Shown here: positions 2,761 through 44,095 of the stretch, piece by piece | Layout of the letters: the number at the start of each line of letters is the position of its first letter | How positions within the stretch are numbered: the first letter of the stretch is position 1 | Assembly (NCBI GenBank): GCA_977018835.1 | Contig: OZ361258.1 | Span: forward strand, 2,356,001-2,420,000 | Origin: Minutocellus sp. GHC0000111 | Lineage: Eukaryota | Reading direction: 5' to 3' | Length of the DNA stretch: 64,000 bases | Notes under the pieces: generated by a model | Told to the model about the DNA's origin: nothing | Databases searched by the model: none | What the model saw: only the letters and a program-made list of their open reading frames with translations | Made by a program: the position numbers and the translations under genes

Positions 2761-2793
2761 TACTGAACTTGAACTTGAATAATGAACTAATTT

Positions 2794-4095: not shown

Positions 4096-4205
4096 GGGAC
4101 AGGACGTTTTGGGCGGTACGGTCTGGCCCTCGTCGGTCAAAACGTCCTGTCCCGCTACCCGTTCAGCGCACCTCCGAGTCCCGGAAACAGCACCAACTTG
4201 TAGCA
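4096..4205. repeat. Right arm of the ~105-bp inverted repeat with an internal hairpin
   Basis: Matches 1037-1139 in inverted orientation. The hairpin stem gcgggacaggacgttttg...caaaacgtcctgtcccgc starts 2 bp before the shared arm. Confidence 0.9.
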
Positions 4206-16459: not shown

Positions 16460-16555
16460 TTTCTAATAACAAGGTACACAAGGACGTTGCTACACATATA
16501 TCTGCCTCATGGCGCAAGCCCCGAGCCTCCATTTTCTAAATAACAAGGTACACAA
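16409..16555. repeat. ~73-bp tandem duplication covering the start codon region of the GNAT-MIOX gene
   Basis: ggacgttgctacacatatatctgcc...ggtacacaa occurs at 16409-16481 and 16482-16555, differing by a 1-bp indel. Confidence 0.95.
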
Positions 16556-17482: not shown

Positions 17483-20400
17483 CTACATTAACTTACTGCT
17501 ATGATATTTGTGTTTTACCACAATCCCCAGTGGAAATTTTCGAGCGGCACTGGCACGACTGGCACGATATTTGATTGTCTGCAACGTCGTCGTGCGATAT
17601 TGCTGAGACGGGTCGACCAGTTTCATTGTTGGTGCTCCTGCATCTCTGCAGAGCCAACACCTGTCAATGACGCAAAGACGATCTGGAAGAGGTGTGTAGC
17701 GGGCATACCAGATTGTCCCTTTGGGTTTTGCCCTACCCGACTGCTTCACTTCAACGACTCCACCTCCCTCGGTAGCCAGTGCTCTCTTCAGAGCCATTGC
17801 GGGCATTCCAGTGCGATCAACGACGTCTCTGTAGCCAGAAGTGAACTTCAGCGGCGTGCCAGTTGGTTCCCTGACGTCCACAAAGACTTGAGTTTCCCGC
17901 CGATCCTTGCGCATGGTGTTCTCGTTGGTAGGGACTGTGCCTCGGGTGTTCTTTCGAACGCCGCACCGAGGGCAAAATGTCAGAACTGTTGACCTAAGAA
18001 CTCTTGCAGTCGAGACGGCAATGCCGAGTTTTTGATTGAGGGCAGATGATCTTCGCTCGGCGCTGATCCTCGTCATGTCCTCGAGCTGCTCCAGCTGATT
18101 CTCGACAAATTCACTCTGGCGATCGTTGGCGGTCCCGTTGCCGTAGGCCTCCCTCGCTTTGCGCTGCCACTCGCGGCACTCCTCGAGATGCTCGAGCTGG
18201 CCCTTGACAAAGCGAAGCTGGTCGTCGTCGGGGCACCCGTCCCAGTAAGCGATCCAAGCCATCAACTGCCAATCTCGAGCTCTACCAAGGGCCTGGCGGG
18301 CTGCCTCGACCTTGAGTAGGTATGCAGCAGAATCCTTGATGCCGTTGAAAATATTCATAGCAGTGACACATACTGTGGAGCAGCCGAGGAACTTGAGGAT
18401 ACCACTGAAGACGGAATCGAAAGCGCGGCACTCAATCCCAAACCGATGCCCGTGGAACATTGGGTTGAGGAGACGCTCGGGGTGGACCGGAGGCTTGAGG
18501 GTAAAAATCTTGGACTTGATCTTCTTGACGAAGCGATCAAAGGCGGTCTTGCCAAAGATGTCCTTCTTCATCCTCTCCATGGCCCCGATGGAGCAGAATA
18601 GATTGGACCGACGATGGGCATGATCTTCTCCACAAACTTTCGATACTCCGCCATCACCCTCTTGTAATTCTTCTCACTGTACACATCCGTCGGCTGTCCA
18701 CCATATGGGAATTGGAATGGGACTGTGTTGAGTTTCATGGTAAGCCAGTACACGGGACCGAGAGCAATACGGATGAGCTCCCACGTGGCCGATAAAAGAG
18801 GGAGGCAATTCTTCCGCCAGGTAGCTGCGGCCGGGTGGCGTTGCTTGAGAGCATTCTCGAGGGACGTAGGGCAAAAGTGGAGCCAAAGAATGAGGAGAGG
18901 TAAACCGGCGATGAGGCTGGCTGGAGCGCACCAAGGCATCCACGGCGAAATAAAGACGACGGATTGGCCACCGATGGCAGGAATCGTCTGAGCAATCTTG
19001 AGGAATTTGAGCCATTCCTTCCATATCTGGACGAAGACCGGATTGTGGTGGTCTTGCCAGTCGGAAGGGAGGGTGCCGTAGTGAGGACCAGGAACGTCGA
19101 AATCTTGAGGATCGTACTTCTCCGACTCTTCGTCGGTGCCACTGGCCGCCCGAAGGAGTTGATCGCTCGAATAGTCTGTAGTGTCGTAACAGAATCGATG
19201 GAACACCGGGTCAACACGAGAAAATAAGAAAAAAATAGGATGAGATATGTGTAACAATAAGAGGTAGGAACAAAAGAATGCGTGTGTATTCGCAACACAC
19301 AAAAGAATACGTGCAGTCTCCATTCCAACTCACCGTCAACGACAGTCTCGTTGCCGGCCATTTGACTCTCATTGCATTGAGAGCAAAGGCATAGGTTCCG
19401 CTCCTTTCCTGTAGGATCGACATGTGCTGTTGAAGCCTCCTCCTCGTCCACCTCTCCACAGGAATCGCAAAGAATACGGTACTTCGTAGTAGCCAAATCC
19501 TTGTTCTCCTTAATCCCGTCGTCCACGTATTCAATGGTAACAATAGAGTGCTGCTTTGCAGTCACCATCGCCGCATACTCGGTCCCGTCCTTGTCCCAGA
19601 CTACAGACAACGTGCTCCCAACACTGACGTGGCCGAGGCTCGTGATTGGCTCCGTCGATGGCACCCAAAGCGTCGACGGCATCTCCTCCTCCTCCTGCTC
19701 TTCCTCCATGGCATCTTCAAATGCCTCGTCCTCCACAGCGTCCTCAAAGAGCTGGCTATCCGCATCGTCCACCTCCATGGTCGACGAATCCGAGGCCTTG
19801 CTGCTGCTCTTGGGCTTCTTCTGCTTCGGCTGATCGCAACCCCCGCAATCCGCCTTACCGCAACTGCCACCACCATTGCAATCTCCGGTGGCCTCCTCTT
19901 CCGAGTTCGCCCGTCGCCGACCAGAACGGCGAGGCTGCTCCTTCTCCCCACCTCCATCCTCAGCCTTGGCCCCATTACCACCAGACTGGCCGCTCTTGGA
20001 ACGGGCAGTACGAGCGGTACGGACCGCGGTAGCTGCATTGGCCGGGGGCTGCTCCTTCTTGGCCTTGGAACGGGTGGTACGGGTGGTACGGGTGGTGGCA
20101 CTGCTACCGCTGCCGTTACTTGAACCGGATCGGGGCTCGGGGATGAGATGACGACGGCCTTCCTCCTCGAGGCTGACGTAGTGGAGCTCATCGTAATATC
20201 CAAGGAGGACGGGGCGGATGTCTTCATCACCCTTGTAGACGACGGGGTCAGTGGGGAAGTCGGTGGTCATCATGCCGTTGGGGCCGGCACTGGCACCATT
20301 GAAGTAGGTAACGGTCTGGGCGCGGAAGGAAAAAACATGAATGGGGAGATCGATGAGGCGCTCGATGATGACCAGTTCGATGTTGCCGGACCACTCATGT

Positions 20401-20753
20401 CCGTCCTTGATGCCCTTGGCGTACTGGGCCGGGCCGTCGCTGAGGGCTTGGTACTTCTCGGGGAGGAAGTCAAAGAACAGTCCAATATCGGAGAGGAAGG
20501 CCTCGGCAACAGCGATGCGAAGAGCACGGGCGTTGGGATATTCCGTGAATCCCCTCCGGAGAAGGGCGGCCACGACCGCGTCGGCTTGGCACAGCCCATC
20601 GGTGCGGGTGGAGATGAGCAGCAGCCGGAGGATGTTGGTACACGCATCGACGCCGGCGGCAATGGCATCGGCGGTCGACCTCGTCCTTCTGCTGCTGCCG
20701 GCCGATGAGGATGGCTGAGACCGATTGGCCTTGGACTTCTTCTTCCTGCCCAT
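17483..20753 (-). CDS. Large OTU-protease + Tudor-like + unknown domain + NUMOD1-like/Zn-ribbon protein (one intron, at least one frameshift)
   Basis: OTU motifs TDGLCQADAV, EWSGNIEL...LPIHVF, LGYYDELHYVSL. Tudor-like VGSTLSVVWDKDGTEYAAMV...IEYVDDG. Intron 19333-19176 joins VDD/YSSDQ in frame. Frameshift near 18600 into ORF 17483-18580. Confidence 0.7.
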
Positions 20754-21495
20754 GGTGGTGATGAGAGGGACGATGCGGTCTTGGGGGGTCGAACAGATAG
20801 GTCCAAAATGACAGATGGAGGAATAACGGTTGTGAGAACATGACAGAGCAAAAGCAGACTGGCCATCCAGGCAACAAATAGCTCGGTGCCGATGCCGACG
20901 CCGATGCCGCCGCCTCCGCCGTCGACACCGACGTCTCCGCCGCGTCCAGCGCAGCTGCTGCCACTGATCCTACAATTCGGCCAGAGCCGCTGCTGCCGGC
21001 CGCCAGTCGCTACAATTGTACCAGTAGTGCTGTGCCACTGGGTGCCACTACTGTGCAGAAACACCGAGCCGCCGAGAGCATCCGGGCTGCCGGACTACCG
21101 ATACGCCAATCGATGCCGGCTTGTATCAAGGCCTTGGTCTCCTCCTTCGTCTCTCCCTCCCTCCCCTCCCCTCTTCACCGCCCAAAAATTCCAAACCAAC
21201 CAACCAACAATCGCAACAGCAAACAGGCCGCGCCGCTGCGCCGCCGCCGATGAGGACGTACCAATACACAGGCAGGTGCTCTTGGTGAAGAAGCACCAGG
21301 AGGAAGATAGCAAGGCGGAAGCAGTCGGCAGCTTCAGCAGGTTCAGCGTCGATCGAAAGTAGGATCAAGTGGAACTGAAATTAGTGAGGTGAGGCGATCT
21401 CGTCGTTGGCTTGATTTCTATCCGGGTTCGCACCGCAGGGTTCGCATTCGCTGCGAATTTCGAATGACGTCATTTACCAATGGGCTGCGATGGCG

Positions 21496-23617: not shown

Positions 23618-23757
23618 CGCATTTAATAAGATGACGAGCACCATTCATGTGACTCTCCATTCTGACTCGACGACTCGACTCCTCTCCCGCCATCGAATCG
23701 GCTCGTCAGACTATTTTGATTGAGTCGAGTCGAGTGAGTCAATTCGAGTCGAGTCGA
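23618..23757. repeat. Dispersed repeat: ~55 bp shared with 24909-24963, followed by inverted GACTC/GAGTC arrays
   Basis: tcgcatttaa(taa)gatgacgagcaccattcatgtgactctcYattctgactcgacgac is present at both sites. Confidence 0.85.
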
Positions 23758-23764
23758 ATGGGCC

Positions 23765-24739
23765 TTGCGTCTGGTACACTTGCATGCGCCAAAAATGCCG
23801 CATCAACCTTCTGTCGATTGGTTTCAGATGTTGTTACCGGAAAACTAGACAATGGATTTGCTGTGATAAGGCCACCGGGACATCACGCTGAGCCAAGCCT
23901 CGCCGGTGGTTACTGTGTGCTCAACAATGTTGCTCTTGGCGCAGCATATGCCCGGGAGAAGCAAGCTTGGTGTTGCAAAAATTTTGATTGTCGACTGGGA
24001 TATCCATCACGGCAATGGGACTCAATCAGCATTTATCAACGACGCGGATGTTCTGTACTTTTCTGTTCGTTCATCGATATCACAACGGAAATTACTTCCC
24101 TTTCCTTGGCGGCAACGGAGGGCCTGGCATGGTGGGCGAGGGCAAAGGTGCTGGCTTCAATGTCAACGTTGGATGGAACCAAAAGCATATGGGTGACGAA
24201 GAGTACTACGCTGTCTGGAAAAGAGAGTGTTGATGCCCATTGCACGAGAGGTCCAACCCAACATTGTTCTTGTTAGTGCTGGCTTTGATGGGGCCTTGGG
24301 CGACATGGGCGAGTGCAACATTACGCCATACGCCTTTGGCAACCTCACGAAGCAGCTAATGACCTTGGCAGAGGGTAAGGTTGTCTGTACCTTGGAGGGT
24401 GGCTACGTCCGAAGTATCCTTGCAAAATGTTGCGAGGCTGTTATTTTGGCTCTGTTGACGGGTGGCAAAGACGGGAATGCAAAGGATTGTAGCTCCAATC
24501 AGTGTGAGGACTGTAGTGCTAATGATTCTTGTGGTGCCGACGATGAAGAAAAGAAGCTTGATTCCAGTGACCTGCCAAGCTGCATTACATGTAGCAGCAC
24601 CGAAGAGAAAGACAAAGATGACTCGCTGCCTTCTATTTCAATCAACCCAAGTGCAGAAAAAAGCATTCGGGCCACCATAGAGGCGCATGCTCCGTATTGG
24701 AAGTGCTTTGGGAAGTCTTTGGAAGAATTGGATGAATGA
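23765..24739 (+). pseudogene. Class II histone deacetylase, 3' half, with three frameshifts
   Basis: [45 protein letters not shown]. Frameshifts from duplicated aagc (23959-23966), gttc (24065-24072) and an extra ga (~24224). Confidence 0.9.
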
Positions 24740-24908
24740 ATGAGTCCAGTAGAGATCTACACATGTGCGGTAGATCTCTAAGTTGATTGAGGACAAGTTG
24801 AGGGTGAAAGAGAGAGAGGTGAATGAGCCATGAGATACGTGGTCATAAAGATTTTTGCTACTAGAGAGCCTACGTAGAGCCTTAGGTACATTATACCGAT
24901 AATGTGCA

Positions 24909-24999
24909 TCGCATTTAAGATGACGAGCACCATTCATGTGACTCTCTATTCTGACTCGACGACCCGCCGACCAGCGCAGAGCTCGAGTCGAGTGAGTCG
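24909..24999. repeat. Second copy of the dispersed GACTC/GAGTC repeat
   Basis: Direct repeat of 23618-23673 followed by ctcgagtcgagtgagtc. Confidence 0.8.
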
Positions 25000-25205
25000 T
25001 TGCGTTCGATAAAAAATCGTGTCCGTCCGTCGTACGGTCGTGGCTCCAAATTTGCATGCAACAGATACCTAGGTACCTAGGTACTTCTATTGCCGCTGAC
25101 GCTATTATAATTATTGGACAAAATAAGTACATGTAGAGTCTACCGGTGCCATTCATTCATTGCACTACTAGTACGTAGCTAGATTTCGCCAATCGCGTAC
25201 TTAGC

Positions 25206-26960
25206 TCATGCGAGGACGGCCTCCTCCTTCTTAGCCTTGGCTGCTTCGGCCTTTGCCTTCAAACCGTTGGGTCCGTCTGCTCGTGCAACAATCTCATCGG
25301 CCACCATCAAACCACTTCGGGTGGCGCCCTCCATGGAATCCAGATAGTCTTGGTAGGTGTAGGAACCAGCCAGGAAGAAGTTCTCAACGGGAGTGGCCTG
25401 TCGGGGTCGGAACTTGTCCTGCCCGGGCTTCTCCCTGTACAGACTCTGGCCAAGCTTGACAACCGAGCTCCATGTGCACTTGAGCTTCCGGCTCGAGGGG
25501 AACAGCTTGTTGAGCTGATCGATGCAGTCCTGAACAATCTGGTCATTGGAACGGTCAAAGGCGCGCTCATCAAAGACAGCCTGGATGAGGGAACCCTCTC
25601 CCTCCTTGTAGTACTCCGTGGGGCTGGTAAGGGCGAGATCGGCAAAGCAGGAGAATTCAGCATCGGCAGAGTACAGAAGGTTGTCAATACCGCCACCCTT
25701 TCCATCGGATTGATCACCGGCAACGTCCATCATTCGAGCTTCGTCCTCCAATTCCGTCACCCAGCCATCGAAACGAACCTGCACAGTGGCAATAGGGACA
25801 GTGTCGAGCTTGTAAATGTTGTCGAACATGGGGTACTTGCGGAAATTCTCCACCAAAACCTTGCGAATGCCGGGCACGTCGAGGGCGGCAACGACCACAT
25901 CGAACTCCTTCACTTCATCGTTGGGACCGACCTTGATACCAGTCACACGGGTGGGACGGCCCTGGTCGTCAACCTCGTGGACCAAGTCGCGACAACCCGT
26001 GCTGAGATTGATCTTCACATTGCGATCCTCCAGATACTGGATGATGGGATCGTGCAGGTAAGTCTGCGGGCTGCCCTCGAGCATGCGGAGCACACTGGCC
26101 TCCGTCCGGATGGCGAACAGCATGAAAATGGTGAGCATGCAGCGGGCAGAGATGTGATCGCAGTCCACAAAGCCAAGGGCGTAGGCGATGGGATCCCACA
26201 TCCGATCGAGGGAGCCACGGCTGCCGCCGAGCTGGGTGAACCACTCGGTGAAGGTAATGTCGTCGAGTTCACGGACCATGTCCATACCACCGTCAAAGTC
26301 GAAAAGGGCACGAACGATGGGGGAGGTACCAAGACGGACGGCGTTGTGGAACTTGTCCTCAACCTCGAGCTGCTCGGTCTTGAAGAAGGCCTGCAAACCA
26401 GAGACGGGAGCGCCGATGGGGAAGTGGAAATCGAGAGCTCCGAGCTTACCTCCGTCGTTGACGAAGGTGTGGATGTGCTCCTTGACGCGGAGGGCATAGT
26501 CGAAGGAACCGGTGCGCTTCATGATGCCATAAAGGTTGTAGTAGCAGCCGAAGAAGACGTGGAGGCCCATCTCGATGTGGTTGCCGTCCTTGTCGGTCCA
26601 GGAGGATACCTTGCCACCGACGTACGGGCGGAGCTCGAACATCTCAACGTCGTGGCCGGCATCGGCCAGATCCATCGCGGCGACCATGCCAGCGAGGCCG
26701 GCACCGACAATGCCGATCTTGAGCTTCTCCTGATTCTTCTTGGCGGGTCCGTCCATGGCCCTCTGCATCAGGTTGGTGTTGAGGAAGGCATCGTTGCCGA
26801 TCTGCTTCTTGGCATCCTCCGATGCGAAGGTTTCGTCGGCCGAGATGGTCGACATGCGCAGAGGCAGGGATGTACCGGTTTTGGCGGTCAAAGATACGGG
26901 AGCAAACGCCGAGGCGGATGCCAAGAGCAGGGCCGAGGCGGCGATAGATAAACGTGCCAT
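25206..26960 (-). CDS. ZDS: Zeta-carotene desaturase, plastid-targeted, intact and intronless
   Basis: ASASAFAP presequence; [73 protein letters not shown]. Confidence 0.95.
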
Positions 26961-27358
26961 CTTGCTGATTTGGTGTTGTTGGCTGGCGGTCGGGGATATC
27001 GATGCTGACTACTTAGTACAGGCAAGCACGGCGCAGAACAAGCAAAAAAAGTGATGGCAGGCGCGCGGCGCGGCGGCCATCTTGAAGCGCTCTGCGCTGA
27101 CGCATGATACGGGAATACGTACGTATGTACGGCAGAATGCTCTTTCTTTGTTACGACGTATTCATGACGGAGGAGGGCTCGGTGGCCACCACCTGGCGTC
27201 CAGCCACTCTGTTCACTCTTCGCCGTCGCCGATGTCTCAATCTGACTGCAGTACATACAAGTACACAGATGAGATTTCAGTACAAATTTTACCACTGAGG
27301 AATATGTCGGTGCCTTCTATCTACATGTAGATCTATCTTTACTGGTACATGTACGTGG

Positions 27359-28981
27359 CTACATGTACATGTATCGTTTTACATGTATGACAAATCGTCT
27401 CATCAAAAATTTAGCCACATCGAGCCCAAGCAACTTGCACATCACCAAGGCGAAAGACAAAGCGATGCCCGATGTCACCAAAACATTCTGTCGATGCTGT
27501 CTCAAGATGTCTTTGTATGTCAATGTTGGATTGGATTTCATCAAGAGAGCTGTCACAGATGGCCGCATCAAATTGTTGGGCACTCCCACTGCATTGGACA
27601 TTTTTTCCGAGACTCTAAAAAGCTTTGATTCGACTGCTTTTTGGGCTGTGAAAATTGACCTGCCTAATCGATCGATGGGACTGCGAAGGTTGTACTGGTA
27701 GTATGGATTGGCAACAGATATCAAACGACATATGCTCTCTGCCTCCTCCACTCTCTCCTTGCTGTAAGCCTTTAGTGCATTTGCTAGCTCGGCATCGGTC
27801 ATGTTGGAATGCTGCTGCTTGATGCCATCTTCCATGCGTAAGAAATGAGCCGCGTCTAGCAACCCTGCATTCAATCCCTGTCCCACATCCGGAGGGAAGT
27901 GATGCAGCGAATCACCGACCAAGATGATGGGGACGCCATTTACAACGCATGCCGCCCGTTGAGTCCAAGTGGGCTTTGGAAAGGTGACGCCCTTGCCATG
28001 CAAAAATGCCTCGATGGCTTCACGGGATATGCTGGACTTGGCATTCAGTTGAGGAAATTCCTTTGACAAGGCATCATAGACCTCATAGACGGTCTTGCAT
28101 TGATACAGAAAATAATGTGGCCGCCTTGCCATGCTCAGGGGGCGTAAATTGAGATACTCGTCGCCCCCGGCAACTGTGTCGTGAAATGAGAGCATGGATA
28201 TCGAATTGCCTGTTTGTCCTCGAAACGAAACAAAGTCGTTGAATGAAACTCGCTTTGGATTTGGCGCCATGATTGATCGAAATATCAGATTTGCAGACGG
28301 ACAACGGACCGACTTGGTACGAAACGAACGGCTTACTTTCATCGCGAGGATTTTCCGGACCTTGGAGTTGATCCCATCGCATCCAATGATGCGTCGGCAT
28401 GTCAGTGTTCGAGAACCGCTTCCATCCTTGCCATCCTTTGGTACTATGTGCACTTCCGCAGATGAAGTCAAGAAGGAGATATCCTCCACCTTTCCTTCAA
28501 TAATGGGGGCTGTATTGCTTCCACCTTTGCACTTTTCGAAGCGCTCTCGGAGTACTTTGACGCGCTGGCTTCTCTGCAGCTTGATCGATCCATCTCCCAC
28601 CTGGCCTCCTGGGATCGTCTTCTTTGTTCCGTCTGGTTGAATTATGTGAAAGCTGCCACTGCCACCGCCAGATAGGGCATAATTTCTTGATTGTGCCTTC
28701 AGTTCCTCCGTCACCCCCAACTCGTCCATGAGCGATCTGCCCCTCCCATCGATAGAGTAGGTGAACGTTTTGGACCAGTCGCCATAAATACTTTCGGCGG
28801 TTGGTGACGCAGCAGCACCGAGACTTGCTCGTTCAATCACCACGCAGTCGACCCCGCGCTGCCGAAGGCCGAGAGCCACAGCCAATCCGACGGGGCCGCC
28901 CCCGACGACCACCGTGTCGACATCGACGGCCTTGGCGGGGGTGATGATCATGGCGGCTCTTGCCTCTGGCCTGACATGCAT
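27359..28981 (-). CDS. FAD-dependent monooxygenase (kynurenine 3-monooxygenase-like family)
   Basis: VGGGPVG, IGCDGINS and LVGDSLHHFPPDVGQGLNAG motifs; C-terminal hydrophobic tail; start uncertain. Confidence 0.8.
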   Translation of the reverse strand: MHVRPEARAAMIITPAKAVDVDTVVVGGGPVGLAVALGLRQRGVDCVVIERASLGAAASPTAESIYGDWSKTFTYSIDGRGRSLMDELGVTEELKAQSRNYALSGGGSGSFHIIQPDGTKKTIPGGQVGDGSIKLQRSQRVKVLRERFEKCKGGSNTAPIIEGKVEDISFLTSSAEVHIVPKDGKDGSGSRTLTCRRIIGCDGINSKVRKILAMKVSRSFRTKSVRCPSANLIFRSIMAPNPKRVSFNDFVSFRGQTGNSISMLSFHDTVAGGDEYLNLRPLSMARRPHYFLYQCKTVYEVYDALSKEFPQLNAKSSISREAIEAFLHGKGVTFPKPTWTQRAACVVNGVPIILVGDSLHHFPPDVGQGLNAGLLDAAHFLRMEDGIKQQHSNMTDAELANALKAYSKERVEEAESICRLISVANPYYQYNLRSPIDRLGRSIFTAQKAVESKLFRVSEKMSNAVGVPNNLMRPSVTALLMKSNPTLTYKDILRQHRQNVLVTSGIALSFALVMCKLLGLDVAKFLMRRFVIHVKRYMYM

Positions 28982-29788
28982 CGGCTCAACCTGGTAGCTA
29001 TCTACGTAGCTACGTACGTAGGCCTACGTACGTAGTACGAGTACCTCTAGTCTAGGTAGGCCTAGGCACGTACCTAGGTAGCTCATCAGATCAAGTGATG
29101 GCATCCCTTGATCAGATCGCCACGGTCTCGTGCCTACTAGCAACCGGTCGAGCCACCGGTTTTGGCGTTTTGGCTCTCGCTCGAGGCAGCAGGCTTGAGA
29201 GTCTCAAAAGCTCAAAAGGCACTTCACCTTCGCCTGCTTAGCTACAGATCTCCTGCGTAGGAGCTCGGCTGCATGCAACTACATTCTATTCTATTCCACT
29301 CTGTTAGACTGCCAAAGTTTGCACGGGCATGGGAAAGAAGAAGACGAGTCTGGCTGGCTGGCTTGCTTGTCTTCGTGTGAGATCTGCTAGGCAGTGATGC
29401 TGGTGCCGCACCCCCGGACGACCTGCTACATTGACCCCGATCCCCCGATCGGACCTCCCGTGAGCCAGGACAGGGAAATGTCACTCCATCCAGGCCCCGG
29501 GCACCTGCCCTTTTAACATGTGCTGTGGCAGCAGACGGATCGCAGAGACCGCCCCCGACGAGCGTGAAGCTGGAGCCGCGCCCTCCCTTCACGTTGTCGC
29601 TCTCGCGACCGAATTGATGGATTTCCGCGGTTCGGTTTAACTATGTCTACCCTGATTCCATTCACTACCATCTGAGTGTCATGGGGTAGGTAGGTTTGTC
29701 CATCGCTGCCCGCATTGGGCGTGCGAGGTCTCAAACGCCGCGTCAGCGCTTGGAGCCGTGTCTCCCTGTTTGGGCCGACAGAATTGTG

Positions 29789-29984
29789 TGCTAAGAGGTC
29801 CTAAAGCTAAGCTAGATATATATAGCTAGTAGAGGTTAATAGGACCTACGTAGATGAAAAATGGGCCATCGGAGATGTCGTTGGCCCATGGATCAACGGT
29901 CAGGAGAGGGCACTGAGTCAGTGGTCTGATCACCGTACGTACCGTACGTATGTATACGTACGTACGTACCCCACGGCATCAACA
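29789..29984 (-). repeat. 3' LTR
   Basis: About 7 substitutions relative to 35805-36000 (manual count). Confidence 0.95.
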
Positions 29985-30032: not shown

Positions 30033-33000
30033 CTAATTGGAATCTACATGTAAGTAGACTGGTCGCATGTCGACATGGTAGCGGGCGGGATGGTGCTTTG
30101 TAAAATAATCGGCCAAATTTTGCGCTCCTTTCCGCCAGTAGCAGTGCACCTGGAATTGTCGTTGCTCCATGCGATCTTGGACCCAGTAGAATCTCATGTC
30201 CATAGCCTTAGACCGTCTTTGCTTGACGGTTTTATTGGCGATTCCAGATGCTGTAGAGTTGTCAACGACGATAGCAGTAGGGGGCTGCGGGTGACCCGTT
30301 TCTTCTAGTGCTGCCCGGATTGTTGGTGCTGCTGCTGCATCTTTCATGTTGAAAAATAGTCCCCTCCCAATTCGGCTTCAGCGGCTGAGGACATTACATG
30401 CTTGATGATATTGGCATTCACGAGGATGGCTCCATTCATTGGTGGCATGGGATCACTTGAGTCAGGCTGGCGGTGCGGGTCCTTAGGTCGGGAGCTTAGG
30501 TAGAAGCACCCTCCGAGCTTGCTTCTTGTTTTCGGGGCTGATAAGCAGGAGGCGTCGCCATGCACATGTAGGATCATGTCTGACTTGACGTATCGAATGA
30601 CTGCGTCGGGATGGGTTGCAAGGTAATCTAGAAGCTTCTTGGCATCTTGTCGAGTGCGCTCGGTAGCTTTGGATTGTTCCGCTGAGATGCTATTGAGCGC
30701 CGGTAAAATTGTTGAATCAATTGCTCGACCACAGTGCAAGGAGCTGCCCACCACCTGTTGAATTTCGTTGATGCCTTTGGCGTCGAGTGGTGGTGAGTCG
30801 TCTTCCGGTTCTGGCAGCTGGGGTCCCGGGCCACACGTCGGACGATTCCATCGATATGGCGCATGCTCGGGCCGTGAGGGGCGGTCGTGTTGGAACTTGT
30901 GGCGCATCTCCTTGACGTAGTTAGGCATAGATAGATCCACCCATTTGGCCTCGTAGTTCCACTCGAGTTGAATACCACAATAAAGTCGGCCTTCCCAATC
31001 GGTAGTGATCTTGTACTTGGAGTTGAGGGCCTGAATGAGATGGTCTGCATGCTCTTTCCCGACACACTTTACTCCAAAATCGTCAACGGTTAGGCAAAAG
31101 GTAATTGGGCGGGTTTTGTGCCTCCAAAGGCCGGCAGTGCGCTTGCAAGGGAAATAGCCATGGGGTTTGAGATGCTTGACAAGTTGATCGTAGGCTAGGC
31201 GCCCTGCCTGGGGTAATCCATACATTCCACCATCGATTCTGACCAATACTCGACCATTCTTTACTTTGTCGTGGAGGTCGTAGGCTTCCATGACTTCGTC
31301 GGGGATGAGAGCTACTGGCGCCCACATCCATTCTGGTTCTGGCATGGTGCTATTGAGATAGAAGTCACTGATATCAATTCCCATGAAACGAGCATTGTCT
31401 GTAGAGATGACGCTGTTGAAAAGTAACTTTGCAGTCAACATTTCAGCGGTCGGGGTCGAGACTGTACCAGGGTAATGAATTTTGTCGCCTCCTGCAGTCC
31501 ATCGAACTCGATTGGGATTTGGTTTATGGGAGCGATAGTCGGCGACAATGCGGAGGTATGTGGCTTTTTTCCCCCGAGGCAGTTCGGACCAGTGGACGAA
31601 AGCCATTGTATTGGAGGGAATGCTAGCACTGTTTCCAACTCGGCCGTCCGTTAGCCGTCCAATTTCATCGATGTTTGCTTGAATGAATTGGTCCCTCATG
31701 TTCGTTTTGAGGAGGTCGCGGTATTCAAGCATTGCACCAGTGTCGGGATGGACGACGGCGTTAGCAAAGTGTTGGAGGTTTGGTAAAGGCGAGAAAGCTG
31801 CCATGTTGGCCACGTGGTGGGTACTACGACGAGGTGATGGCCGTGGGGGAGGGTTCCGATGTGGAATGTACCCTCGCTGACGGCATGATCGTCGTCGAGG
31901 TGGTTTGGCGGTCGATGGTTTGGACTTGCTTGTCGATTTTGCTGGAGCTGGTAATGTTGGAGTGGTATCGATCGTTGGAGACTTGCGTTTACGTTGCCGA
32001 CGGGAGGTGGGGGCATTGGAACTTTGATTGGATGTTACGACGGTTGCATCGTCGTCATGATTATCATCATCGTCGCCGTTGGGCTCGTCTGCTGCAGCCA
32101 AAGGATTGTAGTAGTTGGAAGAAACTGACGAGCGAGGTGGCGCGTTGGATCGACGTGATCGACGGCTTTTAGTGGTGGCTGCATCATATGTGGAGGATTT
32201 TGCCACCCTCGGAGGTTGCTGGGGCTGAGGCAACGGAGCGTTGGGGTTGGAGACAAGGTGACGGCCTACTTCAGTCTCGTTCATCTCTTCTACGTCGTCG
32301 TCCTCGTATTTGATTTTGTAGTACTTATACTTCTTGTCAAATGCAACGACTCTACCCTTGTAATTGCGATCTCCAAACACTTTGGCGACGATGGTACCGT
32401 GGCGGAATCATTGGGAGTCGTCATCGTTCTCCAGCACCCTCGGAGCTGCGGTTGTCTGCATCGTCTCATCAGAGGCGGAGGTGGCAGATTCTGCTGGGGT
32501 CACGCTGTTGAAAATCTCGGAGAGCTTTTCTAAAGCTTGACGATGCTCGTCTCGAAGGGGAGCAAGGGGTGCCGCTGGATGTGGACTCTGTAGAGCGTGC
32601 AGGAGTTCATGAGCTGCGACTATTGCTGCATCGGCCGACGACGTTTTGGGTACCGGAATCATTTTGGGGAGCCAGACGAGTGTGTTACCAGTGCGTTCCG
32701 CCCGAGTTTCCTCAATCCAAACCTTGTAACACCGGTAGTGTTCCATGGCTGTACCGACATAGTACCCATCAACGCCATGCGGGGACCAAGAGCCGCGTGC
32801 CGAGGGCATCTCGTGAAAGATGACCTTGCATCCGAGGGGGCCGAGAGGCGTGCGATTGAAATCAAAGCCGCCATTGAGTTGCTCGTACGCTGATAGTCGA
32901 GGGTTGACTCGGGATGCTCTCAGGAAATTGAGGGTCATTACCGCCTGCTCCAGCAATTTATCCCACAAGATGAGGGGAAAGTCGGGATCGGTACCACAGA

Positions 33001-34231
33001 GAATCGCAATGAAATGATTCTTAAAGGTTCGAATGGCTCGTTCGGCCGCATTTCGGCGGTGGGAGTGCGTTGGGGTCAATTGAAAATCTACATCCTTTTC
33101 TTCCATGAACTCCTTCAGCTCTCGACTCACTTCATCATCCAATCGTTGCAATTTTGGGCGAAATCCTCGCTTGGAGAGGTATTCGAAAATAGTTTGGTAC
33201 GCTCGGCGCATTTCCGTTCCCGATCGGCTTTTCATTGGTTCGGCCAAGATGCTGTTGGAGTCATAGTCATAGACGACCATTATGTGCTGGTGGCCAGAAA
33301 AATACGATACCAAGAAACGGCCGGGCTGATCTGAGAAGATCTGGCCCGTCATGTCATGACAATCAGCAAAGACATAGTTGGTGCGCTGTTGGTGTTGTGC
33401 CGGGTGGAGATCCTGCTCGGTTTCGTCCACCCCAGGGAGAGATTTTGGCGTAGCCATCGACCGTTTGGGCTTGGTCGACCTGATGTTCTTGCGCTGCTGG
33501 TCTAAGTGACCTTTAATCATCGGTGTCGACTGTGGCATGTGCTTACGTACAAGCTTTGATGTGAGGCCTGGCCAAGATCTATAAAATCCCGCATCGATTG
33601 CTTTGCACCAGGTAGATAGCTGAGGACTGCCAGCGCACCAATGTAAAAAGGCTACACGTTCCGGAACCGTCTCCTGGGCAATTGCGGCGTTGGCAGCATG
33701 TTGGATGACGTTGGGGCCGGGGAGCGGCGACATGGTGGGCGAGCAATTTAGATCTACCATCCACAATTTCGTTGAGGGGTCTCGTTTACCTTGCAAAATG
33801 ACGGTATTGTCCTTGGCGATGACTACCGAATCCTTATCGAAAGTGGCAATACATCCATCGTCACACAGCTGCCCAATCGATAGGAGCGATGATGCCATGT
33901 TATTGAAAATGTAGGCCTTGCTAGCCGATGGGGAAACCCCAGGGAGGCGAAGCGTGGCCTCGTGGGTGTTCGTCATTGTGCTATTATCCGGAAGGGTGAC
34001 GCTGATAGGAATTGCTGTCTGTTGGACGTTGAAAATAGGGCCATCGTACGATAGGTATTGGGGCTTCTGGACAAAATGTCCCGTCGTTCCAGTATCTGCT
34101 GCGAGGACGATTGGCTCTTGAGTTGGAGGTTTGCTTTTTGACGTAAGAAAAGCTAACGAAGGCGGGGAGGAGGTGGATTCAGATGTGCTATCCTCTATTT
34201 TATACTGATTAACATCCACCGTCCCTCCCGC
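30033..34231 (-). pseudogene. pol: Copia pol (protease, integrase, Tudor-like segment, RT, RNase H)
   Basis: ADTGTTGHF (PR); FSDQPG..RLDDE..AAERAIRTFK (IN); YGLPQAG, VDDF (RT); SAAEAE, ADYFTK (RH). Internal TGA at 32408-32410 and a frameshift near 30360. Confidence 0.92.
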
Positions 34232-35512
34232 TCAGTTACGACGCGAGCTACCACCGCAAGGATTGTACTTGGTGGCGTTATCAACGTGGTTGGGCCCTTT
34301 GCAAGTGCATTCAAAGCTGGGGTGGTTGGACGAATAGCCGCACGTGTGGCAATAATGGCCTCTGGGGAGGATCGACTGCAGTTCCCGCTTCTCCTGGCGG
34401 TTGAGGTTAGGACCTTGGCCTGGGAAGTGGCCGGCGCCGTTCTGCTGGCCACCGCCGCGGTAGCCTCCACTGCCACCAGCATGGTTGCGTCCCTCACGCA
34501 GAACGCGGTTCTCGGCCTTGAGTGAAGCTATTTCTTGGCGAAGTTTGGCAATGGTGTCATCCTTCTCGTTGCTCTTTTTGGCGAGGTTCGCCATCATGGC
34601 TTGGTTGGTCTTGAGGGCTTCGGTGGTGTCAGCCAAAAGGAGATCGGCTCGAGAAAGAAATGGATCGTCCGAGGCCGATGAGGCCAAATTCGCGCCATGA
34701 CATCCTGCCGCTTCGGTGGTGGTATTGGCCATCTTCTTATCATGCCAATCGCGGAAGTCCGACTGCATGTTGGCCCACGTGCGTTCGGCCTCCGGTCTGT
34801 CGTCCCAGTCCTCGCATGCCTTCTTTGCCAATGAGAACCTGCGCACGGAGCGGTAGAACTTGGAGACCTTTTGCTTGTTGGTGAAGGGTTCGCCGGCCGT
34901 TTCAAACGCCTTGAAGACTTTGTTGAATGTGGCGATGTGGGTGTCGATGGGTCCCCCGTCGCACTGCTTCTCGAGCTGCTTCTCTAACTCCTCCTTCTGA
35001 GTCTCGTTGAATTTCAAGTAGCGATCGGTAATGCTGTCGATGATTTGGCGGATGGTGACTGGCTGGAAACCGAGCATGTCATCTTCGAGATGATTGATGT
35101 AGACGGCGTCGATCGAGTCGAGGAGGAGATTCTTGAGCGCCGTGTTGACTTGCTCGCACAAGTTGTAGTGGCCCTTTTCGATGTAACATCCCCGGATTGC
35201 ACGATCGCGTTGGTCTAGATTGGCCACGGCGGGAATGGTGGGGCTGGGGCCAGGATTTGCCGGAGGCACATGTGGTCGGCCGTTACTTTTGGTGGTGTGT
35301 TCGGCATCGCTGACGACGAGGCCCAAATGGCCGAGGTTGTGGTCATTGCACCCTGCTGGAATGCTTGCCGCCGCTTGTTGAAGTTCCTTGAGCGCTTTGG
35401 CAACACGCTCGCGTTGGGGAGGTTGTCCTGGGTCATTCATGCGTGTGATTAACTTGGTGGGGAGAATCGGCGCTGCGCCGAGAGGTTGGCCAAAAACTGC
35501 GTCGGGATTCAT
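34232..35512 (-). CDS. gag: Copia gag
   Basis: 426 aa with GHLGLV near the N-terminus and a YCHTCG...HPSFEC...H zinc knuckle, in gag position. Confidence 0.88.
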   Translation of the reverse strand: MNPDAVFGQPLGAAPILPTKLITRMNDPGQPPQRERVAKALKELQQAAASIPAGCNDHNLGHLGLVVSDAEHTTKSNGRPHVPPANPGPSPTIPAVANLDQRDRAIRGCYIEKGHYNLCEQVNTALKNLLLDSIDAVYINHLEDDMLGFQPVTIRQIIDSITDRYLKFNETQKEELEKQLEKQCDGGPIDTHIATFNKVFKAFETAGEPFTNKQKVSKFYRSVRRFSLAKKACEDWDDRPEAERTWANMQSDFRDWHDKKMANTTTEAAGCHGANLASSASDDPFLSRADLLLADTTEALKTNQAMMANLAKKSNEKDDTIAKLRQEIASLKAENRVLREGRNHAGGSGGYRGGGQQNGAGHFPGQGPNLNRQEKRELQSILPRGHYCHTCGYSSNHPSFECTCKGPNHVDNATKYNPCGGSSRRN

Positions 35513-35804: not shown

Positions 35805-36000
35805 TGCTAAGAGGTCCTAAAGCTAAGCTAGATAGATATAGCTAGTAGAGGTTAATAGGACCTACGTAGATGAAAAATGGGCCATCGGAGATGTCATTGG
35901 CCCATGGATCAACGGTCAGGAAAAGGCACTGAGTCAGTGGTCTGATCACCGTACGTACCGTACGTATGTATACGTACGTACGTATCCCACGGTGTCAACA
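35805..36000 (-). repeat. 5' LTR
   Basis: tgctaagagg...gtcaaca, partner of 29789-29984. Confidence 0.95.
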
Positions 36001-36239
36001 TCGTGGTCTAAAAGACGTTGGTGCATTCGCACTAAGAAAATGAATGTAAAGTCAAAAAAAAGAAAAAGGAGGGGCCTTCCGCTTAATGTTTGGCTACCCC
36101 CTGCGTCTTGCACCCTAAGGACTAAGCCTCACCTCCATTTTGGAGGTTACGAACTACCCTCTGTGCTAGAGATTTTGGCTTTTGAGAAGGGGCGTCTCCT
36201 TTTTGGAGTTGCTACCTCCTGATGGGGTGGCTCGATGGC

Positions 36240-37760
36240 CTATGGATTGGAGACATCGCTCTTTTCGTGTCTTTTACGGAGTTTCCGTCTCTGAGCTTTG
36301 GCACGTCGTCGAGACGTTGCTGTTTGCCGTGGTGGGGGGGAGGGGGCTTCCGTGGTGTCGTCCTGAGATTGGCGAGTGAGGAAGTCATCTAGAGAGCGTT
36401 GGTTGGTTTGGGTGGGATCGGTTGGTGGGTTGGGATCATTGATAGCATGGAGTCGTGTGCCTTGGAAGCAGTTCTCGATGCTGCCTGTGATGAGGATTCC
36501 GGCGATGTATTTGCGGAACTTTTCGATTAGGTTTGGCATGGCACGTTCAAATCTGTCCCAGTTTATGTCTTTTGGGTGGAGGGCTTCCGAGTGAAAGATC
36601 CAGAAGCATGCGTGGAGGAGGACGTAGACGCCACAGTTGTAGCTGTCCGATTGTTTTAGTCCAGGGATTGTTGTGATGTGACCGTCCCAGTCGTCTGGGA
36701 CTAGGATTGAGTCTCGTATGGTGGTCCGAATGTCATTGATCGTATCCTCGTCGTCCTCGTCGTAGAGAGAGTCCATGATGTAGATATGGATTGTTCCATC
36801 GGGTTCTCGTTCTCGAATGAGGAGGGTCCAGTGGAGTCCGTAGTTCCATGCAGTGAGAATGAGGGGATCCTGGATAGACGGTCGTTCATCTGGGTCGGTC
36901 CTAGTCGAGCGCCGGAGGCGGAGACTGCGTGCGATGGCTGGGTCTCGTGGGTCTCGTCGTAGGATGTCGATGTTGTTGGATGTCCACCATTTGTGGACTC
37001 GGCTGTGGGGAGCCTTTGTACACATGAGACGGCCAAGATTATTGATGATCGCGTCGTTGAGCCATTCCCTCGGTCTAGTGAGGAGGTAGTCATCATAGGT
37101 GATGGTGTATCGGGGTACGCATTGGTGGGGGATATGGGTCTCATCGTGGGGTGGGCTGGATGGTGGGAGAGGGTCGTCAGTGATGGTGATTGTCGTTGCA
37201 TTTGCGTCACCATTTTCGGGGTGAGAGACGGTGGGCGGGCGGCTGCGAGATGAGGCGGCTAGGCCTTGGTGCCGGAGGGTTTCAATGCGTTGATCTGTGG
37301 ATTGGCTGACGTGGAATAGTTGGGTTGGGTTAAGTTCCGGCATCGGTCGATGCTGGGGGGTGCGGCGGATGGGTGGTCTAGTCGCTCCCAGGCGTGAAGG
37401 CCGTAAGTATGGATTTTCTGGTCTGGCGAGCGGTGGGGTAAGTTGGAGGTCCGTTTGGGTTAGCCCAATGGTGTTTAAGCGGGCCTGGTGGGAGTTGAGG
37501 TGGAGTAGGGCGAAGATGTGGCAGGAGGAGCATGTATCGGTAGACGATGTCATGTTACATGATCGGCAGTTGGTTAAGGACGGAGTGGCTGGGTGTGGAT
37601 TAAGCATATTACATTGATGACACCATATCGGCGTTGTCGGTTCCATAGCTAGGCGTGGGGTAGGGTGGCACTGGCAGATCGCCTTCGCGGCGGTCATGAT
37701 GTCCTCGGTGGGAGGTTGGTCCCACCAGTATTGGTTTCTGTCCGCCATTTGGAGGCCGAG
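36240..37760 (-). CDS. C-terminal part of the retroelement ORF: Cys-rich finger + Ulp1/SENP (peptidase C48) domain
   Basis: EWLNDAIIN, HWTLLI, IMDSL and QSDSYNCGVYV give the His-Asp-Cys triad plus the oxyanion Gln. The listed Met at 37769 lies inside the TSD, so it is not a native start. Confidence 0.85.
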   Translation of the reverse strand, partial: LGLQMADRNQYWWDQPPTEDIMTAAKAICQCHPTPRLAMEPTTPIWCHQCNMLNPHPATPSLTNCRSCNMTSSTDTCSSCHIFALLHLNSHQARLNTIGLTQTDLQLTPPLARPENPYLRPSRLGATRPPIRRTPQHRPMPELNPTQLFHVSQSTDQRIETLRHQGLAASSRSRPPTVSHPENGDANATTITITDDPLPPSSPPHDETHIPHQCVPRYTITYDDYLLTRPREWLNDAIINNLGRLMCTKAPHSRVHKWWTSNNIDILRRDPRDPAIARSLRLRRSTRTDPDERPSIQDPLILTAWNYGLHWTLLIREREPDGTIHIYIMDSLYDEDDEDTINDIRTTIRDSILVPDDWDGHITTIPGLKQSDSYNCGVYVLLHACFWIFHSEALHPKDINWDRFERAMPNLIEKFRKYIAGILITGSIENCFQGTRLHAINDPNPPTDPTQTNQRSLDDFLTRQSQDDTTEAPSPPPRQTATSRRRAKAQRRKLRKRHEKSDVSNP

Positions 37761-37863
37761 TGCATGCAACTACATGTACATGTAATCTTTGTTGTTTTCA
37801 TCTAATATGCATTATTACATTATTGTTTCCAATACCGTACCTAGGTACATACTCATCCGTGTT

Positions 37864-40152: not shown

Positions 40153-40356
40153 GGTGTTGAGAAAAGTGAAAGTAGGAGAGAGCGAGCAGCTGGTCGACAA
40201 AAGGTCATGGTCGGTCATTTGAATTGGCATCAGGGCAGGGCTAGAGGGTAAAAAATTAAATTACGTCTCTGTGACATCATCATCCTGGGCCGGCTGGCTC
40301 GCGGAAAAAAAACCACACAAAAACCAAAGCCACGTTGCATTGCCAAAGTAGGCCTA

Positions 40357-43300
40357 CCTTTCGAGTTCAGAGGATTTGAAAGTGACGTGATGATGACGTA
40401 TTAGAAACACGACCACACCAGACCAAAAATCCAAGCTCACTTTTTCTAACTCCGAGGAATAAATGACGGCCAAGATGGAAGTCGGGGCAAGAACCAAGTT
40501 ATGGTCACCAACTTCTACATATAGTCGAGAGATATTGTGCACCAGAACCAATAAATGTACATTATGTGATGATTTTTTTCGACATTTGCAATTCCTCACC
40601 CCGGGAAAAAATACATTTTTGGAAGCACCAAATCAAAATGTAATGAATAGAAATGGACATGCTATGATAAGTTATAGCAAATCAATGACTCCATCGTCTT
40701 CATCATTTTCATCTATGTCGTCCTCAATGTCATCATCTTCGCCGGGAACATCAATTGGCCAGAGTGGTTCACCATCCTCTTCAGCTTCTTCCTCGGCAAT
40801 TTTTGCGAGACCAGCCTTTCCCCGTCTGGTCTCCACAAGATTGTTACCGCCACGACTTCTCTTGATGTTGTTATATATCACTGGAAGTTTTCCAAATACA
40901 TTGAGAAAGGCCTCTTTTGATGCGACATTGGCCCATACTTTCATTACAGTCTTGTCAAGAGCATTCGCATCATTCTTCTGACCGCGATGCTCCTTTTCGA
41001 CGGCCGACTGCAAAGACATCCAGATGCCGAGATCAAGAACATTTGTCTCGGGCGACCGAGGAACCTGCTGGATTATCTCAATCTTATATTTGTTTTTGAG
41101 GTCCTCGGTGTACTTCTCAACTGCTTCATTGGACCCATGACCGCCGGCATTGTCAATCATAAGACACATAACATCAGACTCCTGAATATTTTGTGGATCC
41201 CACTTCACCCAATGATGTGCGTCTCGAATCGCCTTCCCGACCTCATTCATAGTCTCCAACATCCATTTGGAGTCGCAGCTACAGTCCTTGGTAACCTTAT
41301 CGCCCCGTTGACACCGCACCCCGAGCTCAAGGTCGTCGATCTCAACCTTCACCTTCTCTCCATTGCTATCAGGAGTGTGTCGCTTGAGACTCGAGATCTT
41401 TTGATTGTAGCCAACAGCGGCATGCTTGCGACTTTTTGCCTGACCGTCGGATTTATAGTCCTCGTATTGAAGTTCCAATCGCTCTGTAACAAACTCAGAA
41501 AGGCCGTAGATTTCGGCAATGTGGTCGCAAAGATGGCCGGCGGTCATGTCAGCATTCTCGTCGTAAATGTCGCGCCAATCATTGTCATTTTTTAGCGCAT
41601 CGTTGACCTTAGCATCTGGAGAGAAACTCTGATTACGCGTAAGCTTTTCCACCTTCTGCTCCCTGGCGACTCTCTTGATCATGATGCGCCCATTGAAATC
41701 AACGTCTTTGGTTTCATCCTTCATTGGTCGGCCAACAACTCCAAGATACATAACTTTGACAGGGTGTCTTCTGGATCGAATTTTTGGGCTTGCCTCGGAA
41801 GCATGGATAGACGCGAGGTTCGGACTACTTAGTTCTTCGTCAGAAAGTGGCAACATCTTGATCTTTCGTCGCCGAGTAGCAGTGTAAAACCACTTTTCAT
41901 CAAGATACGCTACAGGAATGTTGGGATCGGTCGTAATGTCCTCCCACTTTTTGATCCAATCAAGTCGCTTCCTACAATGTTCGGGGGTGAGCCTCGGCTT
42001 CTCGATCGACGACTTCTCCTTACCGCCTTGCTTTTTCCACCAGCGAAAAAGCTGAAGACGATGGAGACTAATTGTCAGCCTATCTTCATCTGGAGTAGCT
42101 GATTTTGCGCTCATGCAGTCAGCTAGCTCCTTAAAGGTTGCCATCGCACCCTTCATCCGAGCAGCATGCCGATGCAGCTCGCGGAGACATCCTGGCTCCT
42201 TCTCCTCGATCATGTCCGTGCATGCCTTCCTTCCACGAACCTCCTTTCTGCCGATGGGATTGCTGATGCCATCAGTAAGGCTTTTGTAGAGCTGGTCTCT
42301 CCACTTGTAAAGCTGAGAACCACCGGTTGACTTGGCATGGCCGTGATCGCACGCAACTTGCCGACACGCGGCAGTTGCAATCAACTTGTTGCCGGTCTTC
42401 ACACGTGCGAGTTGGGTCGCCGCATCCCCACCAATCCGCGAGAGCCACGGCGCTGAACCGCATTCTTTCATTCGCCTGCTTTTCTTTTCTGATTGGTATT
42501 GGTTCGGTGACGGTTGCATTGGGACGAGGAGGACGGAGCATGTCATCGTTGGCCATCCGAACAAAAAAGTCGAGGCCGAGAGCGACCTTTGCCTGTTCAT
42601 CAATGTCACTGGAGGTGGCACAGACAACGGAAGTATCGGCTCCTCCTAAACCTTCATCGTTGGGGGAGGCTGCAGCTGCTTCAGTGGCGGAAGTATCACC
42701 AGTTCCCTTCAGCATGCTGAGGAGACTTGCTGGCATCCAACCCAGTTTCTTGGCCTCGTCGACTAGTGATTTTACTCTTGCTTCGCAATGCGCTGACTGC
42801 ACCTCCTTTCTGTGAGCTGACAACCTCTCACCTAGCTTAGTAGCTAAGACAGTCGAGCGCCCAGAGAACAGAACTTCATCGGGATTTCTTTTCTCGTGCA
42901 CCTTCTGTCCCTCCGGTCCAGAGAATTTCGGGTGGTTGTCCTCCTTATAGTTCTTTTTACGCAACCTGTGAGCACAAACATAAAGCGCCCTGCGTCTTGT
43001 CTTCCCTCTCGGCCGATGCGTCGACAAGTGCAACTTCAAACTACAATGCTCCTTGAGATGTTGCTGCATATCCTTCCATTTTTCCTCGTTGTACTGTAGC
43101 TCATACTTTCCTCCACCGACGGACTTGGAACGCAACAAGTCGGCATCGATGAAAGCAGGGGGGGAGGACGTCTTCCCATTTCTGCCGAGAACCAACACAA
43201 ATGTCATCTTTGCCGCAGGAATCGGGGGTTACTCTCCACCACAGATCCTTACCAGCCCTTCGAATGACATCTGCTGCAAGGAGAAAGGCCATGGGGATAG

Positions 43301-43817
43301 GAGGAGGGGCCGTCCTCTTCTTCGCCGACGACGGTGACGGTTTGGCGGGGGGGCGAATTTGACCGTGGCAGCTTCTTCGACGTGTTTGCGCTCGGCGATG
43401 GTGTTTTCGGCTCAGCTGCCGCCTTTGCCGCCTTCCTGGATGCCTTGGTGTTGCCTCTCTTGCTCCCTGAGAACGAAGTTCTGCTGCGTTTGTATTTTTT
43501 GGGCGTGGTCTGGTTGGTCGTCGTCATCGTCACAAAATTTGCGGGGGTGTTGCGGTGAGGGTGTGCGGGGGACCAAAAAATACATGTGTTCCTGCCAGAA
43601 TCTACTGGACCTGCGAATTCAGTGGATACAAATGGTCGGTGGCAACCTACTGAATGAGCAGGTCCAGTAGATATCCACGAGTTGAGGAGTATTTGCGTTC
43701 CTCCCGAAGAGAATATCGACTAACAAAACACGTGGTGGGAAATGAGAAATGGGTTCAAGAATGACCTTTTTTAGGGGTTATTGGTATACCCTCTACAAAT
43801 CCTCTGAAACCGAAAGG
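40357..43817 (-). mobile_element. Tc1/mariner DNA transposon, DD39D type
   Basis: 22-bp TIRs cctttcgagttcagaggatttg and caaatcctctgaaaccgaaagg (2 mismatches), flanked by TA at 40355-40356 and 43818-43819. Confidence 0.92.
40672..43533 (-). pseudogene. Long DD39D transposase, frameshifted in its N-terminal part
   Basis: LDEKWF, IDNAGGH and SPETNVLDLG motifs, with 39 residues between the second and third Asp. Four overlapping ORFs require about 3 frameshifts. Confidence 0.85.
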
Positions 43818-44095
43818 TAGGCCTACCTAGGTAAGTGTCGGTTGGTTTTGGCTGTAATCCTGCTTGCGTATTCGCCACATGCATTCCACGTTGCTTTGTG
43901 CTTCACATCCCTGGGGAGGCTTTGTTTCAGGAAAGTGTTGAGATTACTTCTCTGATTCTTTCATCGAATTTTTCAATCGCAAAACAAGCACATCTTGTGT
44001 TTCATTCCCTGTTGGTCGGTCGTTGGTCTTGGTTAGGAATTCCCACTCGTCAATTGTATTACTAGTATCAGAAAGACCAACATTCGACGTCGATC

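Follow-up and report, generated by a model that had tools for sequence, protein, structure and literature searches.

The analysed window, 64,000 nucleotides of contig OZ361258.1 of the diatom Minutocellus sp. GHC0000111 (positions 2,356,001 to 2,420,000), carries a Ty1/copia retrotransposon, a DNA transposon and host genes such as zeta-carotene desaturase (ZDS) (Table 1). In both elements, conserved tyrosine codons have been turned into cysteine or histidine codons by A-to-G transitions at TpA dinucleotides.

The retrotransposon, which we take to be a CoDi-like diatom copia, has the long terminal repeats (LTRs), the 5-bp target duplication, the gag-protease-integrase-reverse transcriptase (RT)-RNase H order and the RVT_2 domain of the Ty1/copia group. 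Its LTRs differ from each other at 7/196 sites, one of them a CA-versus-TG pair in a GTAT context, and its empty insertion site is present in contigs of two public sequencing runs. The window copy is broken, because it contains a stop at 32408-32410, a CpG-type change absent from all four compared read runs, and a frameshift in the RT/RNase H region near 30350-30361, where read contigs lack 2 nt at 30361. In addition, a single TGA at 34232-34234 splits gag and pol in the same frame and may be either a readthrough site or a lesion. Chromodomains guide insertion by chromatin marks in chromoviruses; the PF21743 domain in the copia pol is of the PTM/DIR17-like Tudor type and could, by analogy, steer insertion via such marks.

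Table 1. Features of the window, in window coordinates (R, purine; Y, pyrimidine in the site names).
Feature	Position	Strand	Remarks
5' LTR	35805..36000	-	196 bp; keeps 10 RTAY sites
3' LTR	29789..29984	-	196 bp; keeps 12 RTAY sites
Target-site duplication, 5 bp	29784..29788 (TTGTG); 36001-36005 (TCGTG)		flanks both LTRs
gag	34232..35512	-	Tyr>His/Cys supported at 35299, 34702; likely at 35188, 35158, 34963, 34744; unsupported at 35272, 34699
Protease/integrase	32408..34231	-	His at 33286; ends in stop
Tudor-like domain PF21743, E 5e-12	32264..32398	-	between integrase and RT
RT/RNase H	30033..31810	-	TA-derived codons at 31066, 30835, 30736, 30733, 30559, 30547, 30508
ZDS (host control)	25206..26960	-	13/13 conserved Tyr intact
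DNA transposon, 39-bp inverted ends	40340..43834	-	outside the copia finding; 15/30 outgroup-Tyr columns Cys/His in the window copy
TA-rich tracts	28971-29100, 27311-27400, 25051-25110, 24841-24900, 37791-37850, 62121-62180		resemble protected 'TpA islands'

Tyrosine codons in the copia element and the DNA transposon

The first-pass annotation had pointed to eight minus-strand motifs in which Cys or His appeared to have replaced Tyr, and all eight were found with their codons where it placed them. RT columns were scored against 118 distant relatives, and close copies ("siblings") of the copia were represented by 11 ENA proteins of 93-98% identity, mostly on Mb contigs. An ancestral Tyr was borne out for FGVKC (column 31066: Y 107, then F 3, I 3 and H 2), PTCG (30835: Y 109), LHC (30736: Y 79, F 37; 30733: Y 116) and SCL (30547: Y 114), as was the origin of HGD from HSD (30559: S 107); the Cys at 30547 is common to all three siblings covering the site and may be inherited. 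At GGCF (30508) the distant relatives are mixed (Y 47, H 34, F 18), but a Tyr ancestor fits the sibling states, because two siblings have His where the window has Cys. In gag, AEHT (35299; Tyr in 118 distant relatives, Cys in two siblings) and the Cys of AGCHGAN (34702; Tyr in one sibling) stand, whereas PHVPP (35272) and the His of AGCHGAN (34699) have His in all close and mid-distance relatives covering them. Cys or His as the family consensus, which the annotation had named as its own counter-argument, is rejected for RT and most gag sites and holds at the latter two.

Sites beyond those first listed include integrase 33286, with His against Tyr in 11/11 relatives, and further gag candidates at 35188, 35158, 34963 and 34744. 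The window RT has Cys or His in 5/18 outgroup-Tyr columns, and over 19 conserved Tyr columns these residues account for 56/155 positions in the window copy and its 11 siblings versus 15/2382 in 138 other relatives. This excess is far beyond chance. A given Tyr site often varies between siblings, with Cys in some, His in others and Tyr in few. Furthermore, the siblings carry T>A, I>V, S>G, M>V, V>A and L>P replacements at TA steps within or across codons.

The same pattern was found in the DNA transposon. The transposase search led to 42 close copies, for which 15 of 275 and 15 of 21 members were taken from two clusters and P0222 was left out as an apparent duplicate of P0156. In the transposase alone, A>G varies at 36/81 TpA sites versus 23/680 other A sites (Fisher p 7e-24), and C>T varies at 15/164 CpG sites. 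Since a DNA transposon in 42 copies shows the pattern of the copia, the process acts on DNA and on both strands. On the question of whether homology between repeats is the trigger, a singleton transposase relative on a Mb contig (P0157) has 15 Y, 2 F and 2 H of 19, a single case within the outgroup range. The outer ends of the transposon read TTGCC (40340-40344) and TTACC (43830-43834); the left end would itself be a TA-to-TG change if TA were the target duplication. One distant transposase relative carries the Tc3 helix-turn-helix family PF01498.

Substitution spectrum and targeting

For the spectrum we pooled copia and transposase siblings, masked gapped or poorly aligned stretches, counted the copies carrying each unambiguous non-synonymous single-base change and took as opportunities the sites where the window still has A. 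The pooled rates are minimum estimates: positions that have already mutated in the window do not enter the count, and the non-TA class is raised by a few sites of wrong polarity. A>G amounted to 223/1908 at TpA (67/132 sites) versus 84/14331 at other adenines (30/915 sites), a rate about 20 times higher; the pooled counts were 23/3663 for CpG C>T (20/221 sites) and 75/59492 for transversions. TpA is hit on both strands (sense 146/1151, antisense 77/757), and this spectrum, together with Cys and His at the same codons, upholds the proposal that the change is A-to-G at TpA on either strand. Leaving aside columns in which the family has another residue (2/32 in the transposase, 3/21 in RT), the outgroup-Tyr columns contain Y250/C135/H180/R1 in the transposase and Y82/C34/H32/F1 in RT; judged by the outgroup Tyr, the direction is away from TA. 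A CG ancestor decaying by CpG mutation to TG, CA and TA was considered and rejected: the outgroups have Tyr, one Arg occurs among 715 residues, and real CpGs change at 0.6%.

The rate of A>G per adenine follows the flanking bases, being 134/464 (0.29) at RTAY, 71/637 (0.11) at YTAY, 18/523 (0.03) at RTAR and 0/284 (0) at YTAR. Counts in other contexts were 16/4525 at AA, 2/1427 at GAA, 17/1358 at CAT and 13/669 at CAC, versus 205/1101 at TAY, and T>C at TC (A>G with a 5' G) was nearly absent (4/5801). About three-quarters of the Tyr codons preceded by a purine are converted (286/375 in the transposase, 49/64 in RT), YTAT codons are intermediate (25/53 and 10/42) and YTAC codons are seldom converted (4/138 and 7/43). 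Many Tyr codons had been described as unmutated; most of them are spared because of this flank rule, YTAC being cold.

Host genes were the control. ZDS lacks the pattern, as the first-pass annotation held: its conserved Tyr are kept in the window and, at 390/390 positions, in 30 close relatives, with TpA A>G at 2/1373. The closest named match of the gene is that of Trieres chinensis (87% identity), and a FastTree phylogeny of 27 sequences puts both in one clade (support 0.93). Composition is a less confounded control than ZDS, a selected sequence. RTAY makes up 54/228 of TA in the two elements versus 273/703 in 22 hand-trimmed host open reading frames (ORFs) (p 3e-5), and at synonymous R-T|AY sites T is kept at 18/82 in the elements versus 109/283 in the host ORFs (p 0.006). 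In host ORFs synonymous T is kept more often ahead of AY than of AR (0.39 vs 0.20), an order that is turned round in the transposons (0.22 vs 0.40). An xTA/xTG codon test at RTAY gave no difference between host ORFs and elements (33/82 vs 6/14). Composition, synonymous sites and ZDS agree with the claimed enrichment in transposons over host coding DNA.

A JGI metagenome scan yielded eight distant loci (36-61% identity), used as a composition baseline only; RTAY takes 38/174 of TA in the window copia versus 149/344 in seven of the eight, the shortest being omitted (p 1e-6). Among eight other copia clusters the signature was found in one, P0035, in which 11/18 variable columns are Y/C/H only and six more fit TA changes; the remaining seven have 0-2 Y/C/H-only columns each, and short-read assemblies can mask the signature within clusters. 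This cluster (P0035, P0367-P0370) is a second copia family, 50% identical, on short ENA/Logan contigs. In the closest transposase outgroup, 2/3 variable columns are of the Y/C/H type, a count that covers very few columns.

TpA is low throughout the window and lowest in genes. The TA-rich LTRs are indeed spared, with the retained RTAY sites of Table 1 and a single CA-versus-TG difference; low-level TA changes occur in other LTR copies among the reads (29840, 35837). Both LTRs and the intergenic tracts are RTAY-rich. Short tracts rich in TACGTA, GTAC and CTAG lie at gene ends and in both LTRs of the otherwise TA-poor window, and the strongest (28901-29100) reaches an observed/expected TpA ratio (o/e) of up to 2.0.

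Elsewhere in the window, an element at 1070-4165 has 70-bp inverted ends (99%), each nearly self-complementary, and no Pfam hits; it holds a Cys-rich ORF (2794-3951, minus strand) and an ORF with an OTU-like motif recognised by eye (1563-2222, plus strand). ORFs for a Ulp1-like protease (36240-37769, minus strand; weak, E 0.008) and an OTU-like protease (18735-20969, minus strand; E 3e-6) are possibly parts of mobile elements, and RTAY is scarce among TA in the Ulp1 and 2794-3951 ORFs taken together (22/87, p 0.014). There is also a perfect 58-bp tandem duplication at 16409-16539 and a 51-bp direct repeat, with copies 1.3 kb apart, around deacetylase-like ORFs (23627-24966).

Inheritance, mechanism and rival explanations

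Four public runs, from two studies that may not be independent, supplied contigs that were aligned to the copia; runs with small word shares were left out. Among 40 of the 113 differences there are 33 transitions, of which 21 are TA-TG or TA-CA, versus 21% expected (p 2e-7), and a further 4 belong to a CA-versus-TG site as its partner. At many TG or CA sites of the window, the dominant read contigs have TA. Two copies on different contigs differ at 1/361 codons and have all 8 covered hot-site states in common. At four Tyr columns every covering sequence (8-13, the window included) has His, and copies carry overdispersed loads of 3/12 to 10/10 (0/2000 permutations). Same-strand changes within a copy are slightly in excess (22/2000 permutations), which related copies can cause. 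By these indirect signs the TpA changes are most likely a heritable, transposon-enriched hypermutation and not misreads. Misreading of a modified TpA base by the sequencer, or inosine left unfixed in DNA, might give about equal Cys and His at palindromic sites and the near saturation of some sites, and the comparison was made on contigs, for which library types are not on record. We nevertheless consider such a non-inherited cause very improbable in view of the shared hot-site states, the all-His columns, the varying load and the TA in the dominant contigs; moreover, the same spectrum is reported to arise de novo in lines of Bigelowiella natans (10.64898/2026.01.13.699255).

We give a probability of roughly 0.58 to the reading that a host enzyme, a putative deaminase, acts on the RTAY adenine of silenced transposon DNA after insertion. 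Adenine at TpA would be converted to inosine, replication would fix G in its place, and each converted site, now TG or CA, would then be closed to further TpA attack. Deamination is favoured because the changes are pure transitions and because some TadA variants prefer YAY over YAR. Targeting would be by silent chromatin and not by repeat pairing; chromatin that is silent or foreign is no worse a guess than repeat homology, since a single-copy viral insert was hit in B. natans. The effect may be defensive, as conserved Tyr are lost without stops being made.

Several points weigh against this reading or limit it. Most rates are protein-derived, so that synonymous sites and new stops are invisible, the copies are related and the counts are not independent, and the siblings likely, by their sequences, belong to the same genome as the window. 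The ZDS control is under purifying selection. Bulk TpA o/e is not lower in the copia (0.58) than in host genes (0.40-0.61) and failed to separate them; therefore, copy comparisons were used instead, and only a comparison with relatives, or a look at RTAY, brings out the copia signal. The deaminase is a candidate put forward from the mutation spectrum. GAA, the preferred context of amphioxus ADAT2, is nearly untouched, and CAY, the other half of the TadA YA preference, is weak. Two candidates remain that sequence does not tell apart, deamination of the adenine in TAY and a mutagenic modification of the thymine in RTA. Finally, the transposase cluster still has 275 members, which speaks against a defensive role.

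Thymine modified to 5-hydroxymethyluracil (5hmU) or 5-formyluracil by a TET/JBP-type enzyme at transposon TpA could mispair with G and give T>C; 5hmU mostly pairs with A. The pattern being symmetric, A and T cannot be distinguished as the lesion and the thymine route has an identical sequence outcome, and we regard it as an unlikely but serious alternative. In dinoflagellates 5hmU marks transposons and reportedly replaces T preferentially in TA and TC (PMC11572971), but T>C at TC is nearly absent here, and the main text of that paper does not mention 'diatom' or 'stramenopile'. Improbable, in our view, is an error-prone polymerase of the Pol eta type that resynthesises patches at mismatches in methylated transposons. 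Pol eta hotspots are reported as WA (W, A or T), with TA hot on both strands (PMC7884765), CpG decay does occur in both elements, and the slight same-strand excess would fit, though kinship can produce it; yet AA is cold and no hotspot, transversions at TA are rare, and TpA changes are about 19 times commoner than the CpG changes needed as trigger.

A TpA mutation bias acting on the whole genome, with selection removing its traces from genes, would agree with the low TpA all over the window, lowest in genes, and with ZDS being a selected sequence. We see little chance of it, since the synonymous preference for T before AY over AR in the host is reversed in the transposons and since the intergenic tracts and both LTRs are RTAY-rich. 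ADAR is reported to favour a 5' U (10.64898/2026.01.13.699255), but ADAR-like editing of retrotransposon RNA, or reverse-transcriptase error, is scarcely credible: the ADAR type would be expected as sense-strand A>G in elements with an RNA intermediate only, whereas the DNA transposon, which has none, displays this spectrum too, single copies are changed on both strands and AA sites stay cold. RNA editing is ruled out because both strands and a DNA transposon are affected.

A wider form of the deamination reading, which we offer tentatively and would sooner doubt than accept, is that diatoms possess a natural chromatin-guided RTAY DNA adenine deaminase that edits both transposon classes and spares LTRs and TA-rich regulatory tracts. 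It would parallel CpG decay and CpG islands on the adenine side and be an old defence of the SAR lineage (stramenopiles, alveolates, rhizarians), common to diatoms and rhizarians. If true, an RTAY-targeting deaminase would be a natural adenine base editor. In such genomes, TpA hypermutation further skews the dating of LTRs, the consensus sequences built for transposons and the GC content.

Comparison with known systems

Like fungal repeat-induced point mutation (RIP), the process is a dinucleotide-specific, both-strand transition hypermutation concentrated in transposons. RIP, which in ascomycetes raises TpA, is described as C>T, mainly at CpA (PMC2621366), and the polarity opposite to it that had been claimed for the copia is confirmed by the outgroup Tyr, with TA going to TG or CA. 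Diatoms are reported to have a RID-related DNMT4 of unknown function (PMC9998398); a cytosine enzyme of this kind does not explain A>G.

TadA and ADAT deaminases likewise make A>G changes on DNA. TadA-derived editors can show a YAC or a YAY>YAR preference (PMC12528748), which resembles the 3' pyrimidine rule found here, while the process in the window is T-specific at the 5' position with a purine at -2, unlike the DNA-editing ADAT2 of amphioxus, reported to prefer GAA (PMC10354150). Dinoflagellate 5hmU shares the base-level action aimed at transposons and TA among its preferred contexts, but it is described as a silencing mark and not as a mutator, and it includes TC, which is cold here (PMC11572971).

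The closest parallel is the rhizarian alga B. natans, for which Mettrop et al. (bioRxiv 10.64898/2026.01.13.699255) report heritable TpA>TpG/CpA hypermutation of integrated NCLDV (nucleocytoplasmic large DNA virus) and virophage DNA. According to that preprint, 231 de novo changes arose in two viral inserts; with one exception they were A>G/T>C, each of these at TpA, and the rate was about 6e-7 per site per generation, about 1000-fold over background. Activity was seen in only some lines, a single-copy viral insert was hit, DDE and RT domains were enriched among TpA-poor genes, and an ADAT2-like adenine deaminase was proposed. The first-pass annotation knew of no described mechanism, and on this point it is overtaken, as the same spectrum and an adenine-deaminase proposal are already in the preprint. 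A literature search at the abstract level, with few subscription journals, found no published diatom report of TpA hypermutation.

Judged by its sequence outcome, the process in the window works like the Bigelowiella hypermutation, in the direction opposite to RIP: in both, A>G/T>C falls at TpA on both strands, and in B. natans the changes are described as confined to non-host DNA. Unlike the viral inserts of that rhizarian, the targets here are transposons of classes I and II, present in many copies in a stramenopile and read copy by copy. The RTAY flank rule is a further difference, as the main text of the preprint does not contain 'diatom', 'flanking' or 'trinucleotide', although its figures or supplements may hold a motif. 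The window adds a half-converted, multi-copy state and with it a per-context fingerprint, RTAY > YTAY > RTAR > YTAR, for testing candidate enzymes. With this, a process reported in one rhizarian alga is also seen in both classes of diatom transposon, and this suggests an A-to-G genome defence of broader occurrence, next to RIP and APOBEC.

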